From Phycisphaera mikurensis NBRC 102666 (lineage in GTDB: Bacteria; Planctomycetota; Phycisphaerae; Phycisphaerales; SM1A02), in contig CAMDUB010000009.1 in assembly GCA_945878575.1 (NCBI GenBank), forward strand, positions 87 through 64,086: a stretch of DNA of 64,000 nucleotides, written 5' to 3'. This document shows positions 11,872 through 52,581 of the stretch, one piece after another. The notes beneath the pieces are model-generated. The model ran no database searches. It was not told the origin of the DNA and worked only from the letters and a program-made list of their open reading frames with translations. Position 1 is the first letter of the stretch; the number at the start of each line of letters is the position of its first letter. The translations under genes and the position numbers were made by a program.

Positions 11872-12402
11872 ATGGATTGGCGTCAACGAATTTCTGTAGA
11901 CCCCGGCCCCGATGGTCCCTTCCTCGGGGGATACAAGAATGATACGGGTGCTCTGACTTGGATTACGAATGAAACTGTGGACTACCTAGGGTGGGGACCC
12001 AGTGAACCAAACGGCGGGCTCTCGGAGAGATACGTCCACCTCAAACTCTATGGCAAGCAGTCGGCTTGGAACGATTGCCCTTCCCCCTACGCAATCAGTT
12101 TCATCGTTGAATGGGACGCCGACTGCAACAACGACAACATCGTCGACTACGGTCAAATCCTCAACGGTCAACTCGCCGACACCAACACCAACGGCATCCC
12201 CGATTGCTGCGAGCCCGGCAACAACTGCTGCGTCGGTGACATCTACGTGAATCACATCATCGACGGCGGCGATCTCGGCGTGCTCCTCAGCGAATGGGGC
12301 GTCGTGACGCCAACCACGAATTCAGACCTCAATCGGGACGGATTCGTGAATGGCGCAGATCTCGGCATGCTGCTCGCCAATTGGGGACCGTGCGGGGCCT
12401 AA
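11872..12402 (+). pseudogene. 5'-truncated C-type-lectin-domain / dockerin-like repeat protein (probable gene remnant)
   Basis: Only the C-terminal two-thirds of a CTLD is present (W..EPN...WNDCPSPYAISFIVEW), followed by dockerin/EF-hand-like repeats (DLNRDGFVNGADLGMLLANWG). There is no signal peptide, and the frame is open back to the prpD stop with no better start. Confidence 0.5.
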
Positions 12403-12414
12403 CCCCGCTCCCCC

Positions 12415-12448
12415 GAAAATAGGGACAGTGGTGAACGGCACCTATTTA
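12415..12448. repeat. Palindromic repeat element, copy 1 (core GGTGAACGGCACCTATTTA)
   Basis: gaaaatagggacagtggtgaacggcacctattta. The arms AAATAGG/CCTATTT pair. It lies between convergent genes, and its last 3 nt (tta) are the fbp stop codon. Near-identical copies lie at 19586-19647 and 50191-50225. Confidence 0.8.
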
Positions 12449-13459
12449 CAGGTGCGCCACCACCGCGGCGACTTCGTTCTTCGACCCCAGCACCAGCGGC
12501 ACGCGTTCGTGCATTTGGCTTGGGACGATGTCCATCGTGCGTTGACCAGCAGCGGTGACGCTCGCACCGCCGGCTTGCTCCACTAGGAAACTCATTGGAT
12601 TTGCTTCGTAGAGGAGCCGCAGCTTTCCGTTCGGATGCTTCTTGGTCGGCGGATACAAGAACACGCCGCCGTTCATCAGCGTGCGGTGCATATCCGCAAC
12701 CATCGAGCCGATGTAGCGGCTGCTGTAGCCGTTCTGGTGCGCCCACTTCAAGTACTTCTGGAAGCCCTCCGGGAAGCCCTCGGCATTGGCCTCGTTCACG
12801 GAATAAATCTTCTTGCTCGCGGGCATCTGAATGTTGCTCTGCACCAACATAAAACTGCCGATCGACGAATCGAGTTCAAACATGTGCACGCCGCGACCAG
12901 TGGTGATCACGAACACCGTGCTCGATCCGTACAACACGTAGCCCGCGGCCACCTGCTGATGACCAGCCTGGCACACCGTCTCCACCGCGCCGTGAATCTT
13001 TGGGTCGTTGCGCAGAATCGTGAAGATGGTGCCGACGCCAACCGCAGTGTCAAGATTGCTTGAGCCATCCAGCGGGTCGAACAACACGCAGTACTTGCCG
13101 CCCTCGTGGCCGCGGCGCAGAATGGTCGGTTGCTCCTCTTCCTCGCTGCCAAGCACCGCGATCGATCCGCGACCGCCGAGCACGCGCATGATCACCTCGT
13201 TGGCGATTACATCCATGTGCAACTGATCCTCGCCCTGCACATTGATGGTGCCGTCTTCGCCCAGCACGTTCTGCAAGCGCACGTGGCGCACCTTGTGCGC
13301 GATGATCTTGGCGGCAAGACTGATGGCGCTGATGATCCAACTGAAATCGCCCGACGCGCCCGGATAGCGCGTTTCCTCCTCCAGGATGAACGACTGGAGC
13401 GAGACGAGGTTGTCGGTGACCACCCGGCGTGGTGGCTGCTGCTCTGTGGAATCCGGCAT
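12446..13459 (-). CDS. fbp: Fructose-1,6-bisphosphatase class I
   Basis: GKYCVLFDPLDGSSNLD, YGSSTVFVITTG and GGVFLYPPTKKHPNGKLRLLYEANPMSFLVEQAGG are class I FBPase blocks. I prefer the start MPDSTEQQ at 13459 over the ORF-track start at 13510. Confidence 0.9.
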   Translation of the reverse strand: MPDSTEQQPPRRVVTDNLVSLQSFILEEETRYPGASGDFSWIISAISLAAKIIAHKVRHVRLQNVLGEDGTINVQGEDQLHMDVIANEVIMRVLGGRGSIAVLGSEEEEQPTILRRGHEGGKYCVLFDPLDGSSNLDTAVGVGTIFTILRNDPKIHGAVETVCQAGHQQVAAGYVLYGSSTVFVITTGRGVHMFELDSSIGSFMLVQSNIQMPASKKIYSVNEANAEGFPEGFQKYLKWAHQNGYSSRYIGSMVADMHRTLMNGGVFLYPPTKKHPNGKLRLLYEANPMSFLVEQAGGASVTAAGQRTMDIVPSQMHERVPLVLGSKNEVAAVVAHL

Positions 13460-13533
13460 AAAGTGAACGATATCATTCGCGACCCGGCTGCATTCGCACG
13501 CAGCCCACACTTCAGAGAATCAGGAATCCACCC

Positions 13534-19585: not shown

Positions 19586-19647
19586 AAAAAATAGGCACAG
19601 GGGTGAACGGCACCTATTTAGGCACCGGGGCGAAGGGCACCTATTTA
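19586..19647. repeat. Palindromic repeat element, copy 2 plus an adjacent partial tandem unit
   Basis: aaaaaataggcacaggggtgaacggcacctattta is followed by ggcaccggggcgaagggcacctattta. Unlike the other copies, it lies between divergently transcribed genes. Confidence 0.8.
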
Positions 19648-19660
19648 ATACCATCGGGGG

Positions 19661-20299
19661 ATGGATGGACGCGGGTACGAACTTCTGTTTGAGGATGAAC
19701 ACCTCCTGGTGGTGAACAAGGAGTGCGGGCTACTGACCGTACCTGGCATCGGTCCCGAGAAAGCCGATTGCCTGATCGCGCGCCTGCAGAAAGAGTGGGC
19801 CACCGCTCGAGTCGTTCATCGACTTGATCGCGACACCAGCGGCGTACTGGTGGTGGCGCTTGATGCGGACACTCACCGCGCACTCAGCATGCAGTTTGAG
19901 CGCCGCGAAACTTCAAAGACCTACATCGCCATTGCCGCTGGCCATCCACCCAAAGAGAGCGGCGAGATTGATCTGCCAATCCGCAAGGATCTGGTCAATG
20001 GACCACTGCAGATTGTTGACTTTGTGCACGGTCGTGCCAGCGTGACCCAGTGGCGCGTTCTTGAACTCCTGCACGAACCCGCTCGCACGCGCTTTGAACT
20101 CACCCCCATCACCGGCCGCAGCCATCAACTGCGCGTGCATCTCTTGGCGATCGGTCATCCCATTCTTGGCGATGACCTCTATGCGCCCGCCGATATCAAA
20201 GCGCTTGCGCCCCGCCTCTGCCTGCACGCGCAGCAACTGGGATTTACACATCCCGCCACCGCAGCGGCTGTTGAATTCACTTCACCAGCGCCGTTCTGA
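19661..20299 (+). CDS. RluA-family pseudouridine synthase
   Basis: Catalytic motif HRLDRDTSGVLVVA and C-terminal HQLRVHL...GHPILGDDLY. The 3' end overlaps the convergent shc gene by 23 nt. Confidence 0.8.
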   Translation: MDGRGYELLFEDEHLLVVNKECGLLTVPGIGPEKADCLIARLQKEWATARVVHRLDRDTSGVLVVALDADTHRALSMQFERRETSKTYIAIAAGHPPKESGEIDLPIRKDLVNGPLQIVDFVHGRASVTQWRVLELLHEPARTRFELTPITGRSHQLRVHLLAIGHPILGDDLYAPADIKALAPRLCLHAQQLGFTHPATAAAVEFTSPAPF

Positions 20300-45894: not shown

Positions 45895-45940
45895 CCCGCG
45901 CTGAGCCGCGCTGAGCATGGCTGAGCATGGCTGAGCATGC
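45881..45940 (+). repeat. Six tandem 10-nt units (CTGAsCnnGs) spanning the MFS stop codon
   Basis: ctgacccgcg x2, ctgagccgcg, ctgagcatgg x2, ctgagcatgc. The MFS stop TGA (45892-45894) lies inside unit 2. Confidence 0.85.
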
Positions 45941-46080
45941 TCTTTGAACTAAAGCGCTTCGCATCAACGCCCGGCATCGGTATCCTTCGTTGTTCTGCCT
46001 TGGGCACGTTGCCCGAGGAACCCGCACCGCCGCATGATGACGCGCGTCATCACGGCAAACACATCACCCATAGAGACAAC

Positions 46081-47814
46081 ATGGTCGACTACAACCTGAT
46101 CGAGGACATTGGCCTCGACGCTGCTGAACTTGAAATCATTCTTTCCGGCATTCACTCTGGCTCCGACGTCGGTGGCGTCGAACCGAAGTCGATGGCGCCC
46201 GGAAGCATCCTGAAGGGCATCGTGGTCGGAATGTCCGGTGACTTTGTCATCGTTGACGTCGGACTGAAGAGCGAAGGCCAAGTCGACAAGGCAGAGTTTG
46301 ATGACATCGGCGTGAACGTCGGTGACGAAGTTGAAGTGTTGCTTGAAGAGATGGAAGACTCCGAAGGTTCGGTAGTTCTTTCCAAGCGCAAGGCTGACCG
46401 CATCCGCGGCTGGGAGCAGATCCTGGTCACGCGTAAGGAAGGCGACATCGTTGAGGGCAAGGTCCTCCGCAAGATCAAGGGCGGTCTGCTCGTGGATATC
46501 GGCGTGCCGGTGTTCCTGCCAGCATCGCAAGTTGATGTTCGCCGCCCCGGCGACATCGGCGAATACGTTGGCCGCAATGTGCGCGCCTCGATCCTCAAGA
46601 TCGACGAAGAGCGTAAGAACATCGTCATCAGCCGTCGCAAGCTGATCGAAGAAGAGCGCGACGCTGCCAAGAGCAAGTTGCTCACGGCCGTCAAGGAAGG
46701 CGACATCGTTCGCGGAACCGTCACGAACATCGCCGACTTCGGCGCGTTCATCGACCTCGGCGGACTCGATGGCTTGCTGCACATCACCGACATGAGTTGG
46801 GGCCGCGTCAACCACCCAACCGAAGTCGTCAAGATCGGCGACGAAGTTGAGGTCAAGATCCTCAACATCGACCGCGATCGCGAGAAGATCGCTCTCGGCC
46901 TGAAGCAGAAGGAAACTTCGCCATGGGAAGAGATCGAGAAGAAGTACCCGGTCAATTCGCGCGTCAAGGGTAAGGTGGTCAGCCTCATGTCCTACGGCGC
47001 ATTCGTGCAGCTTGAGGAAGGCATCGAGGGCCTGGTGCACGTCAGCGAAATGAGCTGGACCCGTCGCGTCAACCACCCGAGCGAGCTCGTGGCCGTTGGC
47101 GACGAAGTGGAAGTGGTGGTGCTCGAGATCAACAAGGACAAGTTGGAGATCTCGCTCGGCATGAAGCAGACGGAAGTCAATCCGTGGGAACTGGTCTCCG
47201 ACCGTTACCCGCGCGGCTCCGTTGTGGAGGGCAAGGTTCGCAACCTTTCCAACTACGGCGCATTCGTCGAGATCGAGCCAGGCATCGACGGCCTGCTCCA
47301 CGTCAGCGACATCAGCTGGACCAAGAAGGTTGCTCACCCGAACGAGCTCTACAAGAAGGGCGACAGCGTGCAGTGCGTCATCCTCGAGGTGGACCAGGAG
47401 AAGCAGCGCATCGGCTTGGGCGTCAAGCAACTCACCGAAGATCCGTGGACCGAAGCGATCCCGAGCGCTTACCGCCCGGGCATGATCGTCAAGGGCACCA
47501 TCACCAAGATCGCCAACTTCGGCGTCTTCGTGGAACTCGAGGACGGCCTCGAGGGTCTCTTGCACATCAGCGAACTCTCCGACCAGAAGGTCGAGAATCC
47601 GCAGGATGTGGTCAAGCCTGGCCAGGAAGTCGAAGTCAAGATCCTGCGTGTCGACATCGAAGACCGCAAGATCGGTCTCAGTCTCAAGCGTGCACAGTGG
47701 GGTTCCACCGTGGACGAAGAAGCTGGCCAGCGTCGTTCGCAGACTGGCGTTCGCCCAGCCCGCGGCGGCATGGACGATCACGGATCGCTTGGAACGTCGA
47801 AGATCACTCTCTGA
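46081..47814 (+). CDS. rpsA: 30S ribosomal protein S1
   Basis: Start MVDYNLIEDIG at 46081. Six S1 (OB-fold) repeats with recurring G.V..I..FGAF(V/I)(D/E)L..G..GL.H.S(E/D) blocks. Confidence 0.95.
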   Translation: MVDYNLIEDIGLDAAELEIILSGIHSGSDVGGVEPKSMAPGSILKGIVVGMSGDFVIVDVGLKSEGQVDKAEFDDIGVNVGDEVEVLLEEMEDSEGSVVLSKRKADRIRGWEQILVTRKEGDIVEGKVLRKIKGGLLVDIGVPVFLPASQVDVRRPGDIGEYVGRNVRASILKIDEERKNIVISRRKLIEEERDAAKSKLLTAVKEGDIVRGTVTNIADFGAFIDLGGLDGLLHITDMSWGRVNHPTEVVKIGDEVEVKILNIDRDREKIALGLKQKETSPWEEIEKKYPVNSRVKGKVVSLMSYGAFVQLEEGIEGLVHVSEMSWTRRVNHPSELVAVGDEVEVVVLEINKDKLEISLGMKQTEVNPWELVSDRYPRGSVVEGKVRNLSNYGAFVEIEPGIDGLLHVSDISWTKKVAHPNELYKKGDSVQCVILEVDQEKQRIGLGVKQLTEDPWTEAIPSAYRPGMIVKGTITKIANFGVFVELEDGLEGLLHISELSDQKVENPQDVVKPGQEVEVKILRVDIEDRKIGLSLKRAQWGSTVDEEAGQRRSQTGVRPARGGMDDHGSLGTSKITL

Positions 47815-47843
47815 TCAGCGGCGACAACTTCAAGAAGCAAAGC

Positions 47844-47879
47844 GCGCCCCGACGGAAACGTCGGGGCGCTTTCTTTTTT
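47844..47879 (+). terminator. Rho-independent terminator of rpsA
   Basis: gcgccccgacg (47844-54), GAAA loop, cgtcggggcgc (47859-69), then tttctttttt. Confidence 0.9.
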
Positions 47880-47894
47880 GCGTGGGGCGAAGTT

Positions 47895-48010
47895 GACACA
47901 CTTGCGTACGGACGGGGTTGTGGCATTGCGCCTGCGTACTGGGGCGTTGAGGCATCACGGTTGCGTACTGGTCAGCGTTGATGCATCACGCATGTCTACT
48001 GGCCCGCATT
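47895..48010 (+). repeat. Four degenerate ~30-nt tandem units carrying a TGCGTACTGG-like box
   Basis: The box occurs at 47903, 47933, 47962 and, degenerate as tgtctac, at 47993. Spacings are 30, 29 and 31 nt. Confidence 0.6.
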
Positions 48011-48099
48011 CGCCTTACGAGGATGGCCGCTGAGCGCGGCCCTATCCTCTCCGGCGCCTGCGGCCAGATGGGGGTGTTCCACAAACCCTGGTTGTCAAA

Positions 48100-48305
48100 G
48101 TGTCCTCCGTGTTCGAGCCCCCGCAGTGAGCACGGGATCCTCGGTGAGCGGCGTGTGAAACTGAGAAGTCCGGTAGTTGGACGTACGCCCCGTGGGTGCC
48201 AACCGGACGAACAGTTTCGCCCGAGGCTAAGCGGAACCTTGTGGAGCGCAGCCGTCCGCGTCCGAGGGTCCCGCGCGCAACGGAGGGGGCGGTGGGCGAC
48301 TCCGA
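48100..48305 (+). repeat. Long direct repeat, copy A (180-nt core 48114-48293)
   Basis: Manual alignment to 49982-50161 shows 3 substitutions in 180 nt. Noncoding. It ends about 45-55 nt upstream of the RCC1-gene ATG. Confidence 0.9.
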
Positions 48306-48348
48306 TTTATCCTTTGAAACTCAGTGATGACGTGCTAAAATTTCAGAT

Positions 48349-49929
48349 ATGCAGAAGTCTAGGAGTTACCGGGTGATCCCTTTTGGGCGGTTAAGCCGCA
48401 CGTCGATGGTTGCGGCGTTTCTCGCCGCCGCGGGTGCTGTTGAATGCGCACAGGCGGATGGGATTGTGCGGTGCTGGGGAGCCAATGATTCCGGACAGTG
48501 CAACGTGCCACCCGACCTCGGGAACTGCAGCCGCGTTGTCGCGGGGAGCTCGCACTCCGTAGCGCTTCGAAGCGATGGGACGGTGCGATGCTGGGGAAGC
48601 AACTACTACTGGCAGTGCGACCCTCCGAGCGACTTGGGGATTTGCTCCAACATCGGAGCGGGGTACTCCCACTCGATGGCTATTCAGCGTGATGGAACTG
48701 TTCGATGCTGGGGGAACAACGGCAACGGTCAGTGCAACGCGCCCGTTGACCTCGGACCATGCTCAACGGTCGACGCTGGATACTTCCATTCCATCGCACT
48801 TCGCATGGATGGCGCTGTCAGATGCTGGGGATGGGACGCGTACGGCATTTGCAACCCGCCTGCCGACCTTGGGCCATGCTCAAGCATCGCGGCTGGGTAC
48901 TACCACAACATCGCACTCCGAATCGATGGCGCTGTGCGATGCTGGGGTGGTAGCAACGAGGGCCAATGCAACACGCCAGTTAACCTTGGAACATGCTTAA
49001 GCATCGCCGCTGGGTACAGGCATTCAGCCGCCCTCCGAACCGACAGAACCGTGCGATGCTGGGGATGGAACCAGTTCGGCCAGTGCAACACCCCCATTGA
49101 CCTTGGTCCATGCTCAAGTATTGCGGGTGGGTACTACCACACCATGGCACTCCAAATCGATGGAACCGTTCGCTGCTGGGGCCGGAACGACTCTAGCCAA
49201 TGCGTCACACCCATCGATCTTGGAACATCCACAAAAATCGCCGGTGGCGGCTCGAACTCCCTCGCAATCCAATGTGTTGGCGGCGTTAACGCCCGCGTCA
49301 GTCCAGAGCTTGCGCCGTACTCCTTCGCCAATCCACGGGCGTGGACTGCCACTGGAATTCAAGCAGCTTCTCGTGGTGCAACTATCACTATCAATGCGCG
49401 GGGAAATCTTGGAACTGCAACTAAGTTCCTGACTGTCAAGCTTGATGGCGTGACACTTGCTGCCACGATCTTTGGTTCAGGTTCCGGCAGTACCAATTGC
49501 GCTGCCGTTGCGAGCACTGCAACATTCGTGATTCCTCCAGCGCAATTCAGTGCGCTCACCGCGGACGGCGAACTTGAAGTTCGCATCGAGCCGTCGCTCA
49601 ATGCAACAAGTGTTGGGTGCGCGTCCGCTACGCTCACCGTACAACTCAATTACTTACGCGACACCATTGACTGCGACGCGAATGGTATTGATGACGAGTG
49701 CGACTTTGCCGCTGGGGCCGAAGACGAGAACCAGAACGACAAACTTGATTCGTGCGAATTGCTGTACGGCGACCTGAACCTTGACGGCAACATCGACGGC
49801 GCAGATCTCGGTGGCCTTCTTTCGTTCTGGGGCATTCCAAATCCCCCTTATGGCGATTTGGATGGTGACGGCAATATCACTGGCGGCGACCTCGGCCTCT
49901 TGCTGTCCCATTGGGGCGTGATCAAGTAA
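48349..49929 (+). CDS. Secreted RCC1-repeat protein with C-terminal dockerin/EF-hand-like repeats
   Basis: Signal peptide, then about 8 tandem units of the form DG.VRCWG.N..GQCN.P.DLG.CS.(I/V)A(A/G)GY.HS.AL. The C-terminus has DLNLDGNIDGADLGGLLSFWG and DLDGDGNITGGDLGLLLSHWG. Confidence 0.8.
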   Translation: MQKSRSYRVIPFGRLSRTSMVAAFLAAAGAVECAQADGIVRCWGANDSGQCNVPPDLGNCSRVVAGSSHSVALRSDGTVRCWGSNYYWQCDPPSDLGICSNIGAGYSHSMAIQRDGTVRCWGNNGNGQCNAPVDLGPCSTVDAGYFHSIALRMDGAVRCWGWDAYGICNPPADLGPCSSIAAGYYHNIALRIDGAVRCWGGSNEGQCNTPVNLGTCLSIAAGYRHSAALRTDRTVRCWGWNQFGQCNTPIDLGPCSSIAGGYYHTMALQIDGTVRCWGRNDSSQCVTPIDLGTSTKIAGGGSNSLAIQCVGGVNARVSPELAPYSFANPRAWTATGIQAASRGATITINARGNLGTATKFLTVKLDGVTLAATIFGSGSGSTNCAAVASTATFVIPPAQFSALTADGELEVRIEPSLNATSVGCASATLTVQLNYLRDTIDCDANGIDDECDFAAGAEDENQNDKLDSCELLYGDLNLDGNIDGADLGGLLSFWGIPNPPYGDLDGDGNITGGDLGLLLSHWGVIK

Positions 49930-49968
49930 CCACCCGCCCCGCTACCACGCGCGGCCAGTGCATGCACA

Positions 49969-50172
49969 CGTCCTGCGTTTGCGAGCCCCCGCAGTGAGCA
50001 CGGGATCCTCGGTAAGCGGCGTGTGAAACTGAGAAGTCCAGCAGTTGGACGTACGCCCCGTGGGTGCCAACCGGACGAACAGTTTCGCCCGAGGCTAAGC
50101 GGAACCTTGTGGAGCGCAGCCGTCCGCGTCCGAGGGTCCCGCGCGCAACGGAGGGGGCGGTCAACGACTCAA
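49969..50172 (+). repeat. Long direct repeat, copy B (180-nt core 49982-50161)
   Basis: Same orientation as copy A. It starts about 40 nt after the RCC1-gene stop. Confidence 0.9.
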
Positions 50173-50190
50173 CTCACTCAGACCGCGCCC

Positions 50191-50225
50191 CGAAAATGGG
50201 GACAGTGGTGAACGGCACCTATTTA
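50191..50225. repeat. Palindromic repeat element, copy 3
   Basis: cgaaaatggggacagtggtgaacggcacctattta. As at 12.4 kb, the terminal tta is the stop codon of the convergent minus-strand gene, and the preceding codon (CTG, Leu) is also shared. Confidence 0.8.
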
Positions 50226-51887
50226 CAGTTCAGCAAACTGCATGTCTGAAGACTGTTCGAATGACAGGTCCGGGACGTGCACTTCAGTTGCGAAGCACGC
50301 AAGACCGGGGACCGCAGCCATTGCTGCTCGGGTGGCTTCGGCAGTGATCGGCCGCGCGGCGCGGCCATCAAAGCCAGCGCGGAGGTCCGCGCCAATTTGC
50401 AACTCGGCCTTCACGAAGTCGATCGGCTCGATCGCGCGTTCGAATGCTTGCAGGCGATTCTTGGCGTTCTCAAAGGTGCCGCCCTTCTCAGTCCACGTAG
50501 CGCCCGGAAGCACGCACTCGGCAATGTTGCAGAGCGGGTTCTCAAGCGTGTCGATCAGAACCACCTGCGTGGTCATGGCCGCGTCGCGCAATTCTGGTGT
50601 GACCCAGTCGCTTGGATAGTTGCCCGTGATGACCGCCGCGCCGAATGCCTTGGCGCGCAGCGCTGCAAGGAATGCCGCGTAGTCGTGCACCGTGCCGCCG
50701 CCGCGCTTTGTGTTCAGGGCTTCCAGCACGCGTCGGACGCCGCGGGCGTTCGGGGCCTTCTCTGCGTAGATCGTGAAGCCGGCCTTGAAGGTGCGATTCT
50801 CGCCACTGAACGGAATTGGTCCAACAGCAAGCTCGGCCTTCGGGTCAAGTGCAAGTACCCAACTGCCAAGTTCAAACGCGTCTTCACAAGACAACATCGG
50901 ACTGATGAGGACCGCGGTCTTCTGCTTATTGTTGATCGCGTTGGCGATCGTCCCCTGTGCCTTGGCAACGCCTGCCTTCCAAGCGTGCGAGGCATTGCTG
51001 GCGTCAAACGCCTCCATGCCCTTCACGCGCGGCATACGAATGCGTGACTCGGAATGCACATGCTTCCAGCCATGACGCACTTCATCAGTGATCCACCAAG
51101 TGTTCACATCCATGTTGGTGCGCGGCTTGATGCGGTGCATCCGGCCATCATTGTGCTCGACGAAAATGTTGTCGCCACTTGCAGTAATGCCATCAATTGA
51201 CGGCGTCTTGGTCAGGAACCACACACGCTGCTGGAATAGGAATTCCTTGTCCAACAGTGCGCCAACCGGGCAGAGATCAACCACGTTGCCTGCCAGCGGA
51301 TTGTCGAGCGGCTTGCCAGGGAAGATGTCGATCATCTCACGATCGCCGCGACCGTCCACCATCAGTTCGTCAGTACCAGTGACTTCGCGCGTGAAGCGCA
51401 CACAGCGCGTGCACATGATGCAACGATCGCTGTACAGAAGAATGTTTGGACCAATGTCCTTCTTTGGATTCTTGACCTTCTCTTCAAGGAACCGACTCTG
51501 ACCGCGGCCGTACTCATGGGAGTAGTCCTGCAGGTAGCACTCGCCGGCCTTGTCGCACACCGGGCAGTCCACGGGGTGATTGATGAGGAGGAACTCCATC
51601 ACCGACTTCTGGTTGGCCATCGAGCGCGGACTGTCAGTGGTGACCACCATGCCGTCCGAGCAGTCGGTCTGGCAGGTCGGCTTGAGCTGACCCATGGTCT
51701 CCAACTTGCCGGACTTCGGATTCGGCATCGCCACCTCTGCAAGGCAGATGCGGCAGCTTGCCGGAATCGACATCGACGGGTGGTAGCAGTAGTGCGGGAT
51801 CTCTACATCGTGGCGAAGCGCCACCTCGAGGATCTTTTCGCCCTTTGTGAAGTCATACGACGTGCCGTTGATGGTGATCTGCGCCAT
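50223..51887 (-). CDS. nuoG: NuoG-like Fe-S / molybdopterin-oxidoreductase-fold subunit (NADH-quinone oxidoreductase subunit G family)
   Basis: Start MAQITINGTSYDF at 51887. 2Fe-2S ferredoxin-like N-terminus (HYCYHPSMSIPASCRICLAEV) and 4Fe-4S Cys clusters (CPVCDKAGEC; CIMCTRCVRF...DLCPVGAL). The upstream ORF-track extension has no coding character. Confidence 0.75.
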   Translation of the reverse strand: MAQITINGTSYDFTKGEKILEVALRHDVEIPHYCYHPSMSIPASCRICLAEVAMPNPKSGKLETMGQLKPTCQTDCSDGMVVTTDSPRSMANQKSVMEFLLINHPVDCPVCDKAGECYLQDYSHEYGRGQSRFLEEKVKNPKKDIGPNILLYSDRCIMCTRCVRFTREVTGTDELMVDGRGDREMIDIFPGKPLDNPLAGNVVDLCPVGALLDKEFLFQQRVWFLTKTPSIDGITASGDNIFVEHNDGRMHRIKPRTNMDVNTWWITDEVRHGWKHVHSESRIRMPRVKGMEAFDASNASHAWKAGVAKAQGTIANAINNKQKTAVLISPMLSCEDAFELGSWVLALDPKAELAVGPIPFSGENRTFKAGFTIYAEKAPNARGVRRVLEALNTKRGGGTVHDYAAFLAALRAKAFGAAVITGNYPSDWVTPELRDAAMTTQVVLIDTLENPLCNIAECVLPGATWTEKGGTFENAKNRLQAFERAIEPIDFVKAELQIGADLRAGFDGRAARPITAEATRAAMAAVPGLACFATEVHVPDLSFEQSSDMQFAEL

Positions 51888-51948
51888 GGGAGGGCAAAGT
51901 GTAGTGCCCTGCCACCCCGCAGGGACGCTGAAGGAAGCGGCAAATCGC

Positions 51949-52581
51949 TCACTTACGCGGCAGCGTCTCGAAATCAAGGATCGCTTCGCCGTCCGTGAAT
52001 TCCACGTCGGTGATCTTGATGAACCGACCGTCCCCAAGTTTGGCCTTGAGGGGGAGCGCTCGACCAAGTTCCGGGACAAACCACGCGCCGACGCCGGCAG
52101 CGAATGGAATCGGCAGGTTGCCGATACTGGTTCCGGCAGCGCGGAGTGTGGCCGGCGCGCCATCCTTGCCTTCCGAGCCTGGCTCGATCGCCCAGCGCGT
52201 GATCATCACGAAACCGTTCCAGTCCGCTGCCAACGCGAATCCGTCGGCATCGATCGTCGCCTGCACTCCCTGGACGCCTTCTGGCCATGGCAGACTCTGG
52301 TCGTACTCAAGCCACTGTGGAAGCCGCGCACCGAGCCACGCGTTGACGTCCGCTGCGCGTACGCGCACGCTCCACGGCTGCACGCCTTCGCCACGAACTT
52401 TGGTGGTCTCGCTGGCGATCCCCTGCTCGAGCGCACGCGCCGTGTCCAGCGCGCCCGCCGCGTCGCGCGCGGTGGGACTCCACCACGCAGGAGTCATGCG
52501 CGCAAGAGCGACGGCGCCTGCAGCAACTGCGATGAACACCAGAAGTATGGCGAAGAAAGTGCGCGCGCGGGATCGATTCAT
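51949..52581 (-). CDS. Hypothetical membrane-anchored protein
   Basis: Start MNRSRARTFFAILLVFIAVAAGAVALA at 52581, 22 nt after the fabF stop. It has a single N-terminal TM helix and no recognised domain. Confidence 0.5.
   Translation of the reverse strand: MNRSRARTFFAILLVFIAVAAGAVALARMTPAWWSPTARDAAGALDTARALEQGIASETTKVRGEGVQPWSVRVRAADVNAWLGARLPQWLEYDQSLPWPEGVQGVQATIDADGFALAADWNGFVMITRWAIEPGSEGKDGAPATLRAAGTSIGNLPIPFAAGVGAWFVPELGRALPLKAKLGDGRFIKITDVEFTDGEAILDFETLPRK

Follow-up and report, generated by a model that had tools for sequence, protein, structure and literature searches.

Between rpsA and a convergent NuoG-like gene of a freshwater Phycisphaerales bacterium, a single RCC1/dockerin-like gene is bracketed by two nearly identical non-coding repeats, raising the question of whether the repeats belong to that gene or to something more widespread. 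In the window (the whole 64,000-nt stretch of DNA that was analysed), a repeat search aligned positions 48102-48302 with 49970-50170 over 201 nt at 96% identity and a spacing of 1868, as a single two-copy family, in agreement with the first-pass annotation, which had described near-identical direct repeats around the gene. Position-by-position comparison of the 180-nt core found three differences, at 48146 (G/A), 48172 (G/A) and 48174 (T/C); the annotation had the right count and the last two positions, but placed the first at 48147, off by one. The window contains exactly two occurrences of a 47-mer taken from the core (none expected in 100 shuffles), and BLAST of the core against the 64 kb detected no third copy. 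Similarity fades outside approximately 48102 and 48304, matching the weaker similarity that had been reported beyond the core, and the distances given earlier to the gene agree with the coordinates: the core of copy A ends at 48292 and the extended repeat at 48302, ahead of the ATG at 48349, while extended copy B starts at 49970, after a stop codon whose last base is 49929. The open reading frames that read through the repeats (47978..48376 on the plus strand and 49922..50164 on the minus strand) have no Pfam match, consistent with the earlier opinion that neither copy looks coding. An open minus-strand frame in the core was also rejected as protein-coding, its polymorphisms being non-synonymous and Pfam matches being absent.

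In the three readings that had been offered, the repeats were structured-RNA modules or regulatory ones, members of a MITE-like family, or part of a cassette that could loop out or be amplified. The results support these in part: a dispersed family is borne out and a structured RNA is still a candidate, whereas a classical MITE and a regulatory module specific to the RCC1 gene are not supported. Judged from sequence comparisons, the two repeats are separate members of a many-copy family, neither a local duplication nor a module dedicated to the RCC1 gene. On balance, this is probably a new, clade-restricted, high-copy, modular family of intergenic repeats resembling BOX, BIME and ERIC elements, which would be reshuffled by recombination and whose core would act in cis.

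Modular organization of the repeats

The repeats are parts of larger composites built of modules designated T, U, K, C and E (Table 1). Copy A is the C module of a T-U-K1-C unit downstream of rpsA, and copy B is that of a K2-C-E unit ending on the stop codon of the NuoG-like gene, of which TTA at 50223-50225, within E, is the TAA stop. Throughout the family the modules are always co-oriented in the order T, U (one to four copies), K, C, optionally another U, and then E; the forms seen include U, UU, UUU, UUUU, TUCE, UCUE and UTUKCEUE, and all examined composites are intergenic, with T/U upstream and E downstream of C. Module T, which also precedes U at loci L054, L031, L052 and many others, consists of units that are partial duplicates of the 5' part of U, with a palindrome (TGATGCATCA) inside one unit. 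Module U is also found without C, at U-only sites and in U arrays of metagenome loci. Both U and E contain short palindromes and adjoin stop codons; inspection of E by eye gave only partial matches to sigma-54 and sigma-70 promoters, and E was not among the sites flagged by the promoter scan. The start of T is not an inverted copy of the end of E.

Table 1. Modules of the repeat family and neighbouring features in the window.
Feature	Position	Strand	Description
rpsA intrinsic terminator	47844..47879	+	11-bp GC-rich stem and T run; terminator scan
Module T	47914..48002	+	Three tandem units of ~29-31 nt (GTTGnGGCATCACGnnTGCGTACTGG); repeat and inverted-repeat search
Module U	47997..48066	+	Hairpin GGCCGC-TGAGC-GCGGCC; end ...GCGGCCAG; BLAST 96.7% to the L054 reference module
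Linker K1	48067..48114	+	ATGGGGGTGTTCCACAAACCCTGG...CCGTGTTC; variant unlike the linker before copy B; alignments
Core module C, copy A	48115..48292	+	178 nt, GAGCCCCC...GGGGGCGG; two private differences from the family consensus
Post-core stretch	48293..48304	+	TGGGCGACTC..; last family-matching bases
RCC1/dockerin-like gene unit	48305..49960	+	Occupies the slot between two repeat members
Linker K2	49961..49982	+	TGCATGCACACGTCCTGCGTTTGC; variant also in L054, L020, L024, L047 and L050
Core module C, copy B	49983..50160	+	178 nt; one private difference from the family consensus
Post-core stretch and module E	50161..50226	+	...GAAAATGGGGACAGTGGTGAACGGCACCTATTTAC; E 97% by BLAST
NuoG-like Fe-S oxidoreductase gene	50223..52163	-	Pfam; conserved anchor of copy B
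Solo module E	12414..12449	+	Between convergent genes; TTA is the stop codon of minus-strand gene 12446..13510
Solo module E, then second GGCACCTATTTA copy	19588..19650	+	Divergent intergenic region, ~10-40 nt upstream of ORF 19661..20299

The rpsA terminator, over which there is a weak ctRNA_p42d-like match (47836-47881), precedes the repeat element, and copy A therefore cannot be taken for just the 3' untranslated region of rpsA. On the other side, homologues of the NuoG-like protein are 554 amino acids long, and its true start is therefore probably internal to the open reading frame listed in Table 1.

Two members of a family could have come together here by a recent local duplication accompanying insertion of the RCC1 gene, or through misassembly, but this is scarcely credible. 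The cores are 98% identical and directly oriented around a single gene, as such an origin would have it, but linkers K1 and K2 differ, as do the outer modules (T-U versus E), and each copy has positional orthologues of its own in other species. The left flank of copy A has its orthologue in L001, where rpsA is followed by T-U-C (93% identity over 3.3 kb), and the right flank of copy B has orthologues in L031, L046 and L049, where C accompanies the NuoG-like gene (94-96% nucleotide identity); the junction from copy B and E to the NuoG-like gene is the same in L031 and L049, with the same C-NuoG adjacency in L046, and L052 likewise carries a unit of helicase, U, PEP-like gene and C. The differing linkers and separate orthologues argue against local duplication, as does the similarity of each copy to members in other genomes, which roughly equals that between the pair. 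In a second sample (ENA ERZ1426596), an RCC1 homologue of 94% identity is likewise separated from a convergent gene by 294 nt, so the arrangement in the window is probably not an assembly artefact.

The RCC1/dockerin-like gene

The open reading frame at 48349-49929 (Pfam RCC1_2, 2.3e-58) has a 44-nt leader in which the promoter scan located a sigma-70-like promoter (48314-48341: TTGAAA, 16 nt, TGcTAAAAT, 7 nt to the ATG). This promoter lies downstream of copy A and is shared by a paralogue that has no upstream C, and the leader is kept together with a 3' flank of ~30 nt in paralogues L097 and L184. Homology to the repeat family stops at 48304/48305, and homology to the leader of the RCC1 paralogue begins at 48306. 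The codon-usage score per codon of the gene is low compared with its neighbours, and exact protein look-up of its product and of the rpsA product returned no record. It is best read as a self-promoted accessory gene in a variable slot between two repeat units. Copy A was rejected as a 5'-UTR cis-regulator of the RCC1 gene, because the conserved promoter is situated between copy A and the ATG and the core elsewhere adjoins housekeeping genes, with varying neighbours and in every orientation. Module C would not, then, be a regulator dedicated to this gene, and copy A, with the rpsA terminator before it and the RCC1 promoter after it, may not be transcribed at all.

Distribution and genomic context of the family

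An exact 24-mer of C was found in 57 stretches from 10 species-representative assemblies of freshwater Phycisphaerales/Planctomycetota, where the copies are 91-100% identical to copy A by BLAST and many lie at contig ends; with many further copies on metagenome contigs, these searches in related genomes and metagenomes uphold the idea of a dispersed family. Membership of the family was set at a core identity of 90% or more to the 178-nt consensus. Isolate labels of several of the assemblies are of the Lake Mendota or Lake Baikal type. The flanks fall into 26 clusters, 12 of them common to several assemblies, which sets an upper limit of 26 distinct sites, although some clusters were merged through paralogous PEP-like genes and copies at contig ends may have been counted twice. 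A scan keyed on module U identified at least 120 further loci. Genes in the fetched loci were predicted with a home-made caller that chose open reading frames by codon usage.

The composite is located 20-60 nt from trpG, aspS, ligA, ispE, pheS, aroB and other genes, and the orientation and distance of C relative to its neighbours are variable. Slots between modules elsewhere are occupied by PEP-CTERM-like genes, a toxin-antitoxin-like pair, or an open reading frame of 214-217 amino acids that, read by eye without a database match, appears nucleotidyltransferase-like. The PEP-CTERM assignment is based on the C-terminal pattern VPAPGALALLG...RRRRA, for which NCBIfam matches were weak and below curated cut-offs.

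The family has so far been found only in what appear to be close relatives of this freshwater Phycisphaerales bacterium. The modules are absent after rpsA in relatives with 89-90% amino acid identity in RpsA, which have an unrelated conserved 33-aa open reading frame there, and all modules are absent from the NuoG locus of outgroups with 82-86% amino acid identity; the outgroup comparison covers these two orthologous loci, ~260 kb of sequence in all. The element is present at more than two loci, and no known IS or Rfam family was matched: in Rfam 15, which the first-pass annotation had proposed searching, the sole match of the whole window at the gathering threshold was a tRNA, and nothing overlapped T, U, K, C or E in a search of 47800-50400 with E values up to 10. 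A 20-mer of the core had no match in viral contigs, nor did the T-U-K-C-E composite in plasmids and phages (in 'distant' mode).

Structural alleles at orthologous sites

Many copies of C occupy orthologous sites in species that differ by ~20% synonymous divergence, and yet closely related strains differ through gain and loss of modules and genes. At least two alleles downstream of the NuoG-like gene occur among strains whose NuoG protein is identical, and the pheS locus takes the forms U-X-E, U-K-C-E, UU-K-C-E and U-K-C-U-X-E, with pheS itself 92.6-95.4% identical; C is missing from the orthologous pheS site of L107, a member of the clade. The 'empty' U-X-E form retains a stretch that, aligned by eye, is ~70% similar to the 5' end of C. 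Comparison of filled and empty forms at the pheS and NuoG/helicase loci disclosed no short direct target duplication; instead, the whole U module is duplicated. Because inserted segments are flanked by duplicated whole modules and not by short target duplications, dispersed copies have probably been reshuffled by homologous recombination or gene conversion, of which the C-RCC1-C arrangement would be a by-product, arising from recombination between dispersed copies. Through RecA-type recombination the arrangement could in turn allow the RCC1 gene to loop out, be duplicated or be exchanged, and the earlier loop-out idea is plausible, several structural alleles of the locus being present among close strains.

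The same alleles bear on the possibility that C, or the entire T-U-K-C-E composite, is a classical MITE that depends for its movement on a transposase acting in trans from another part of the genome. MITEs such as the Correia elements of Neisseria are short non-coding sequences in many copies, whose inverted ends are imperfect and which disrupt assemblies. The present repeats are similar in being short, non-coding, intergenic and multi-copy, and contigs break at copies; 27-nt arms at the ends of C have 74% complementarity, the copies radiate in a star-like manner from one consensus, and presence and absence are polymorphic at pheS. A MITE is nevertheless very unlikely, and this part of the first-pass reading was not sustained: no short (TA/TAA-type) target-site duplication was seen at any examined junction, inserts being flanked by duplicated modules and changes involving whole modules; U-X-E looks like an internal deletion or a precursor instead of a cleanly emptied site; different species share many copies at orthologous positions; the 25 commonest Pfam families listed for 140 neighbouring proteins include no cognate transposase; and the element has no plasmid or phage match.

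Pairs of modules repeatedly enclose accessory genes (RCC1/dockerin, PEP-CTERM-like, toxin-antitoxin-like and others), with junctions that recur, and one locus has several structural alleles. These observations could also suggest a dedicated site-specific recombination system, integron- or pdif-like, that would recognize the modules and insert and exchange gene cassettes there. Integron attC sites, which are ~57-141 nt long and have core sites R''/R' (RYYYAAC ... GTTRRRY), are likewise folded repeats flanking single accessory genes, including toxin-antitoxin and secreted-protein genes. Such a system is highly improbable here, and attC sites were rejected: the RYYYAAC/GTTRRRY core sites are absent from the ends of the element on inspection of the window sequence, 178 nt exceeds the attC range, and no integrase or recombinase gene is present among the five genes annotated around the repeats of the window or the families listed for the 140 neighbouring proteins. 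The cassettes lie in both orientations with their own promoters, unlike the co-oriented promoterless arrays of integrons, and most copies of C are solitary, beside housekeeping genes.

Conservation and predicted structure of the core

At orthologous loci C is 98.2% identical, compared with 79.6% for fourfold-degenerate sites of the flanking genes, a divergence approximately 10-11-fold lower, and eight copies in five assemblies match the family consensus exactly. These comparisons show, at the sequence level, that C is under strong constraint. Identity to the consensus across species with ~20% synonymous divergence needs either purifying selection or interspecies exchange, so passive repeats are not an easy explanation.

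The plus strand of copy A is predicted to fold with -104.7 kcal/mol (z = -3.5) and copy B with -98.9 kcal/mol (z = -3.0). For module C the strands differ: the predicted plus-strand fold has -97.6 kcal/mol and an ensemble diversity of 10.8, versus -86.8 and 39.8 for the minus strand, and the z-scores are -3.5 and -2.0, respectively. RNAalifold on 34 copies found covariation for none of the 64 predicted pairs, and a separate count on 39 copies (partly ascertained through U) found no compensatory change; variation among the copies is too low for a real test.

The conservation and the well-defined plus-strand fold are what would be expected if the copies of C were independent non-coding RNA genes, or riboregulators associated with surface-protein genes of the exosortase type; all copies, or some of them, would then produce a discrete structured RNA of ~180 nt selected nearly base by base, and the association with accessory surface-protein genes would be functional. 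Several one-sided changes are wobble-compatible on the plus strand, and the apical loop is the most variable spot. A divergent PEP-CTERM-like open reading frame lies within 700 nt of 23 of 99 C copies, and 36 of 46 such frames have a U module within 260 nt after the stop codon. In other phyla, PEP-CTERM-type genes are single-gene units after long conserved non-coding regions, with a 17-nt site and a sigma-54 promoter reported only in Proteobacteria (PMC1569441). The present PEP-CTERM-like genes are similar to this extent, many being framed by a divergent C upstream and U downstream, but C differs from the published motif in its length of ~180 nt, its position beyond a sigma-70-like promoter read by eye, and its presence far from such genes.

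Other features render independent RNA genes somewhat unlikely. There are no compensatory substitutions, and paired positions of the predicted fold vary no less often (26 of 124) than unpaired ones (11 of 54), a common T/A polymorphism (17 of 39 copies) breaking a predicted pair. A scan of the window and inspection of other loci revealed no sigma-70-like promoter or intrinsic terminator flanking C; the orientation and distance of neighbours are inconstant; C is absent from some orthologous sites within the clade, as in L107; and dozens of near-identical stand-alone small RNA genes per genome would be unusual. As a repeat of the BOX, ERIC or BIME kind, C would instead act in cis: in read-through transcripts it would form a long, stable, imperfect hairpin and so affect mRNA ends, stability or insulation.

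Comparison with known repeat families

BOX repeats of pneumococci are modular, clade-restricted, highly structured and co-transcribed with genes, and rarely transpose (PMC3049150). Like BOX (boxA-boxB(n)-boxC in Streptococcus pneumoniae; PMC3049150), the T-U-K-C-E composite has a fixed module order with one sub-unit variable in number, and it is intergenic, abundant, apparently confined to a narrow clade, extensively structured by prediction and rarely moving, with no known transposase. No sequence similarity between the two was found, however, and C is longer (178 nt) and far more uniform between species; self-promoted genes lie between modules, unlike in BOX, and transcription has been demonstrated for BOX, whereas the T-U-K-C-E composite is known from sequence alone.

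In enterobacteria, BIME/REP and ERIC sequences form interspersed mosaics or palindromes between genes, often located just after stop codons where genes converge; they occupy orthologous sites and diverge less than neutral DNA. A REP unit measures 20-40 nt and is paired with a RAYT transposase, and ERIC is ~127 nt. The present family resembles them by description, in its interspersed intergenic units, its positions at stop codons, its orthologous sites and its conservation; U and E are REP-like in behaviour, while C has no counterpart.

Other RNA-bearing or repeat-bearing systems were rejected: a template/variable repeat of a diversity-generating retroelement (DGR), as the repeats are multi-copy and outside the 3' end of coding sequence and no reverse transcriptase is found among the annotated neighbours; and the omega-RNA of IS200/IS605, the bridge RNA of IS110 and retron RNA, as no partner genes are adjacent, the neighbours being rpsA, RCC1 and NuoG-like genes in the window and housekeeping or PEP-CTERM-like genes elsewhere.

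Significance of the repeat family

A more far-reaching role, which is unlikely, would make C a new and required structured RNA or RNA/DNA recombination module that, with U and E, frames exchangeable slots for surface-protein genes (PEP-CTERM-like, RCC1/dockerin); unlike integrons, such a system would vary the cell surface by homology-guided cassette exchange, and it is this role that would explain why the core is conserved base by base. As a BOX/BIME/ERIC-like family, the repeats explain recurrent contig breaks and spurious gene calls in assemblies of abundant uncultured freshwater Planctomycetota, and they mark loci at which close strains differ in their accessory surface-protein genes. The 178-nt core, slow-evolving and without an Rfam counterpart, is a candidate functional RNA, or a candidate recombination substrate that may be behind a cassette-like turnover of secreted proteins; should the family be no more than a selfish repeat, it would still give Planctomycetota a clean counterpart of the BOX, ERIC and BIME elements.

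The direct-repeat pair

According to a repeat search, the only long two-copy direct repeat of the window is a pair of 201-nt sequences (copy A and copy B, 96% identical) on either side of a single RCC1 gene, the C-terminus of which appears dockerin-like by eye; the near-identical repeats described in the first-pass annotation are thus borne out. Its count of three substitutions in the 180-nt core also holds, but a position-by-position comparison moves the first of them from 48147 to 48146 (the others are at 48172 and 48174). A 47-mer of the core occurs twice in the window, versus zero times expected by chance, and there is no third core copy within the 64 kb. No Pfam family matches the ORFs that run across the repeats. 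Other repetition in the neighbouring genes is ordinary for their kind: seven in-frame 117-nt repeats of the RCC1 gene (48457-49251) are RCC1 blades, and numerous direct repeats of rpsA (46300-47700, period 258-264 nt) are its six S1 domains.

Features of the window and modules of the repeat family
Feature	Coordinates or length	Location	Remarks
rpsA	45937-47814	upstream of repeats	
rpsA terminator	47844-47879		canonical; terminator scan
Module T array	47914-48002		three tandem units, ~29-31 nt
Copy A	48102-48302		
RCC1 ORF	48349-49929	between copies A and B	Pfam RCC1_2, 2.3e-58
Copy B	49970-50170		
NuoG-like gene	50223-52163	downstream of repeats	opposite strand
Solo module E	12414-12449	between convergent genes	AAAATAGGGACAGTGGTGAACGGCACCTATTTAC
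Module E, then second GGCACCTATTTA copy	19588-19650	~10-40 nt upstream of ORF 19661..20299	
Module T	~30-nt units		tandem
Module U	~62-79 nt		GC hairpin
Module K			linker, two variants (K1, K2)
Module C	178-190 nt		core
Module E			ends in GGCACCTATTTAC

A modular, dispersed repeat family

Conservation extends past the core on both sides, and with one locus from another assembly as reference (L054:4885-5322) the element can be split into modules T-U-K-C-E, which are always co-oriented, with U varying in copy number. In these terms copy A reads T-U-K1-C and copy B reads K2-C-E, so that their linkers and outer modules differ. The two copies also have separate orthologues: from rpsA to the end of copy A the sequence is 93% identical to L001 over 3.3 kb, and copy B with module E and the NuoG-like gene is 94-96% identical to L031, L046 and L049. 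The alternative of a recent local duplication is therefore rejected.

The proposed search of other genomes and metagenomes, with neighbouring genes listed, found many copies beyond the window. An exact 24-mer of the core, scanned against one genome per species, matched 57 stretches in 10 freshwater assemblies of Phycisphaerales/Planctomycetota (at most 10 per assembly); their identity to copy A is 91-100%, and many of them sit at contig ends. These per-genome numbers are underestimates because the 24-mer missed every copy with A at core position 101 (48215 and 50083 in copies A and B, respectively), where a T/A polymorphism (CAGTTTC versus CAGATTC) is common and 17 of 39 copies have A. Repeat-masked flanks formed 26 clusters, 12 of them common to at least two assemblies, and many sites are orthologous between species; distinct sites number at most 26, since paralogous PEP-like genes fuse some clusters and copies at contig ends may count twice. 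A scan of metagenomes with U as the key, hence blind to the sequence of C, yielded at least 120 loci, with U or TU alone at 35 or more sites away from contig ends; the matches listed include arrays in which U is repeated up to four times, C-less U-E and T-U-U-E, and many C-containing composites. Thus the suggestion of a repeated, MITE-like family stands as regards a dispersed family, but not as regards a classical MITE: the junctions compared have no short target duplication, and no transposase is among the 25 commonest Pfam families of 140 neighbouring proteins. The Rfam search, also proposed earlier, gave no match to the repeats; nor did a core 20-mer against viral contigs, the composite against plasmids and phages, or the literature searched for a published description, so that the family is apparently undescribed.

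Very often the TTA of module E doubles as a convergent gene's stop codon, as at 50223-50225 and in the solo module E (12446-12448), where the minus-strand gene is 12446..13510; the gene upstream of this solo E (11872..12402) terminates in a dockerin-like repeat. At 19588-19650, upstream of ORF 19661..20299, the CACCTATTTAAT stretch could be a -10 box. In the module T array one unit carries TGATGCATCA (47979-47988), a perfect palindrome, of which a second unit has an imperfect version, TGAGGCATCA (47948-47957); from sequence, the spacing looks like that of an operator-type array of protein-binding sites, and such arrays precede U at many loci. U occurs three to four times in tandem in L112 (795-1164), L199 (3478-3851) and L129 (52-456); start-to-start spacing is ~98-100 nt in the first of these and 127 nt in the last. 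Loci of CAMDCW01 and CALQCP02 (L013, L014 and others) have flanks at least 85% identical to other freshwater Phycisphaerales loci (aligned pairs 92-95%), from which the deposited names, 'Phycisphaera mikurensis NBRC 102666' and 'Chitinophaga pinensis', look wrong.

Constraint on the core

Core identity between orthologous loci is 98.2% (3000 positions), versus 79.6% at fourfold-degenerate sites of flanking genes (9080 sites). Copies are 98.6% identical within one assembly and 97.9% between assemblies, a single consensus is matched exactly by eight copies in five assemblies, and the core copies found through U are equally uniform. The plus strand is predicted to form a closed multi-stem fold (copy A, -104.7 kcal/mol, z = -3.5; consensus, -97.6, ensemble diversity 10.8), and the minus strand has a predicted z of -2.0 (-86.8, ensemble diversity 39.8). 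None of 64 predicted pairs covaries, variation being too low for covariation to be assessed. Variable sites are as frequent within predicted pairs (26/124) as outside (11/54), and the frequent T/A polymorphism disrupts a predicted helix; the constraint therefore lies on sequence, and the predicted RNA fold is at most a candidate target of selection. The minus-strand frame open across the core has no family match and no visible coding constraint.

Orthologous loci and spread

By its rpsA homologues the organism belongs to the Phycisphaerales. The element also follows rpsA in L001 (S1 protein 99% identical), where the contig stops inside it, and is absent there in relatives with 89-90% S1 identity. 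Relatives without the repeat (L002-L005, L007, L009-L011) have a conserved 33-aa minus-strand ORF ~200-350 nt downstream of rpsA (e.g. L002 12086-12187; MRAVAIAASNVV...LAALAFMALC), read as a small hydrophobic peptide.

At the NuoG locus, a PEP-CTERM-like gene lies beyond C in L046, L049 and L052, and in L046 and L052 it is followed by U and then by a DEAD-box helicase gene in convergent orientation; L031 has T-U instead of the PEP-CTERM-like gene. In outgroups (82-86% NuoG identity) the NuoG and helicase genes are tail to tail, 3-110 nt apart, with no repeat module at this locus, so the whole U + gene + C + E block is a clade-specific addition. Contigs with one identical NuoG protein have at least two downstream structures, C-E and C-U-X-E, and all break within repeats. 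Between the two genes some outgroups carry unrelated palindromic elements of ~95-120 nt (L081 7666-7760, L079 7666-7773, L084 4714-4835), of which that in L081 has ~32-bp arms, both convergent stop codons in its ends (TAA...TTA) and a possible TA duplication; these point to further MITE-like families in Phycisphaerales.

The pheS locus (pheS 92.6-95.4% identical) has alleles U-X-E, U-K1-C-E, UU-K1-C-E and U-K1-C-U-X-E. The C-bearing segment there lies between duplicates of an entire U module, and no short target duplication was found at this locus or where the NuoG/helicase insertion joins its flanks. The C-less form retains a stretch ~70% similar to the 5' end of C in our alignment. We infer that homologous recombination between dispersed copies may have produced this allele pattern and the C-RCC1-C arrangement, possibly by unequal exchange or gene conversion, or by a looped-out circle that then integrated; the function and mode of spread of the family are likewise matters that we infer.

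Genes in the variable slots

The slot between copies A and B is variable, and RCC1 occupies it as an independent gene. Homology to the family stops at 48304/48305; the sequence from 48306 onward is homologous to the leader of a paralogous RCC1 gene with no C upstream (L097). The two genes (48314-48348; L097 340-430, minus strand) share TTGAAA, a 16-nt spacer, TGCTAnnnT, 7 nt and ATG, a sigma-70-like promoter that implies a leaderless or nearly leaderless mRNA. Some 30 nt 3' of the RCC1 stop are common to another paralogue (L184), where U-K1-C follows. With this promoter downstream of copy A and the core near many other genes, the idea of an RCC1-specific module is abandoned.

PEP-CTERM-like genes in equivalent slots, whose database matches are weak and fall below curated cut-offs, encode proteins with a conserved signal peptide and with VPAPGALALLG...RRRRA at the C-terminus. 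Other occupants are a toxin-antitoxin-like pair (weak database matches for the antitoxin-like ORF only) and a 214-217-aa ORF, nucleotidyltransferase-like by eye and without database match. Across 1.14 Mb of loci, U lies within 260 nt after the stop codon in 36 of 46 PEP-CTERM-like ORFs, and 23 of 99 C copies have a divergent PEP-CTERM-like ORF within 700 nt. Solo composites are also found within 20-60 nt of housekeeping genes (trpG, aspS, ligA, ispE, pheS, aroB, typA, argC), and composite orientation relative to neighbouring genes is mixed. The paralogous PEP-CTERM-like proteins (211-317 aa; L013, L017, L025, L035, L043, L046, L049, L052, L058, L062, L068) have near-identical signal peptides (MRNKTFISSMVG...) and C-terminal anchors, unrelated central parts and conserved 5' and 3' non-coding flanks, as is typical where recombination has diversified surface proteins.

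Comparison with known systems

Among known kinds, the mosaic interspersed repeat comes closest. BIMEs and ERIC of enterobacteria resemble this family in kind; no sequence relationship was seen, so the element would work like BOX, BIME or ERIC without belonging to their families. The family does not qualify as a MITE on target duplication or, among the neighbouring Pfam families listed, on a partner transposase; as an integron attC on core sites, length, cassette organisation or, among the annotated neighbours, integrase; or as an omega-RNA or bridge-RNA on adjacent partner genes. Pneumococcal BOX elements have a fixed module order, variable sub-unit number, a narrow clade, extensive predicted structure, co-transcription and slow movement (PMC3049150); the present family has the module order, the variable sub-unit number and the extensive predicted structure in common with them, along with slow movement and a probably narrow clade. 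Published PEP-CTERM upstream motifs are reported from Proteobacteria only (PMC1569441). With a core under strong constraint and an association with variable slots for surface-protein genes, this family is a candidate worth following up.
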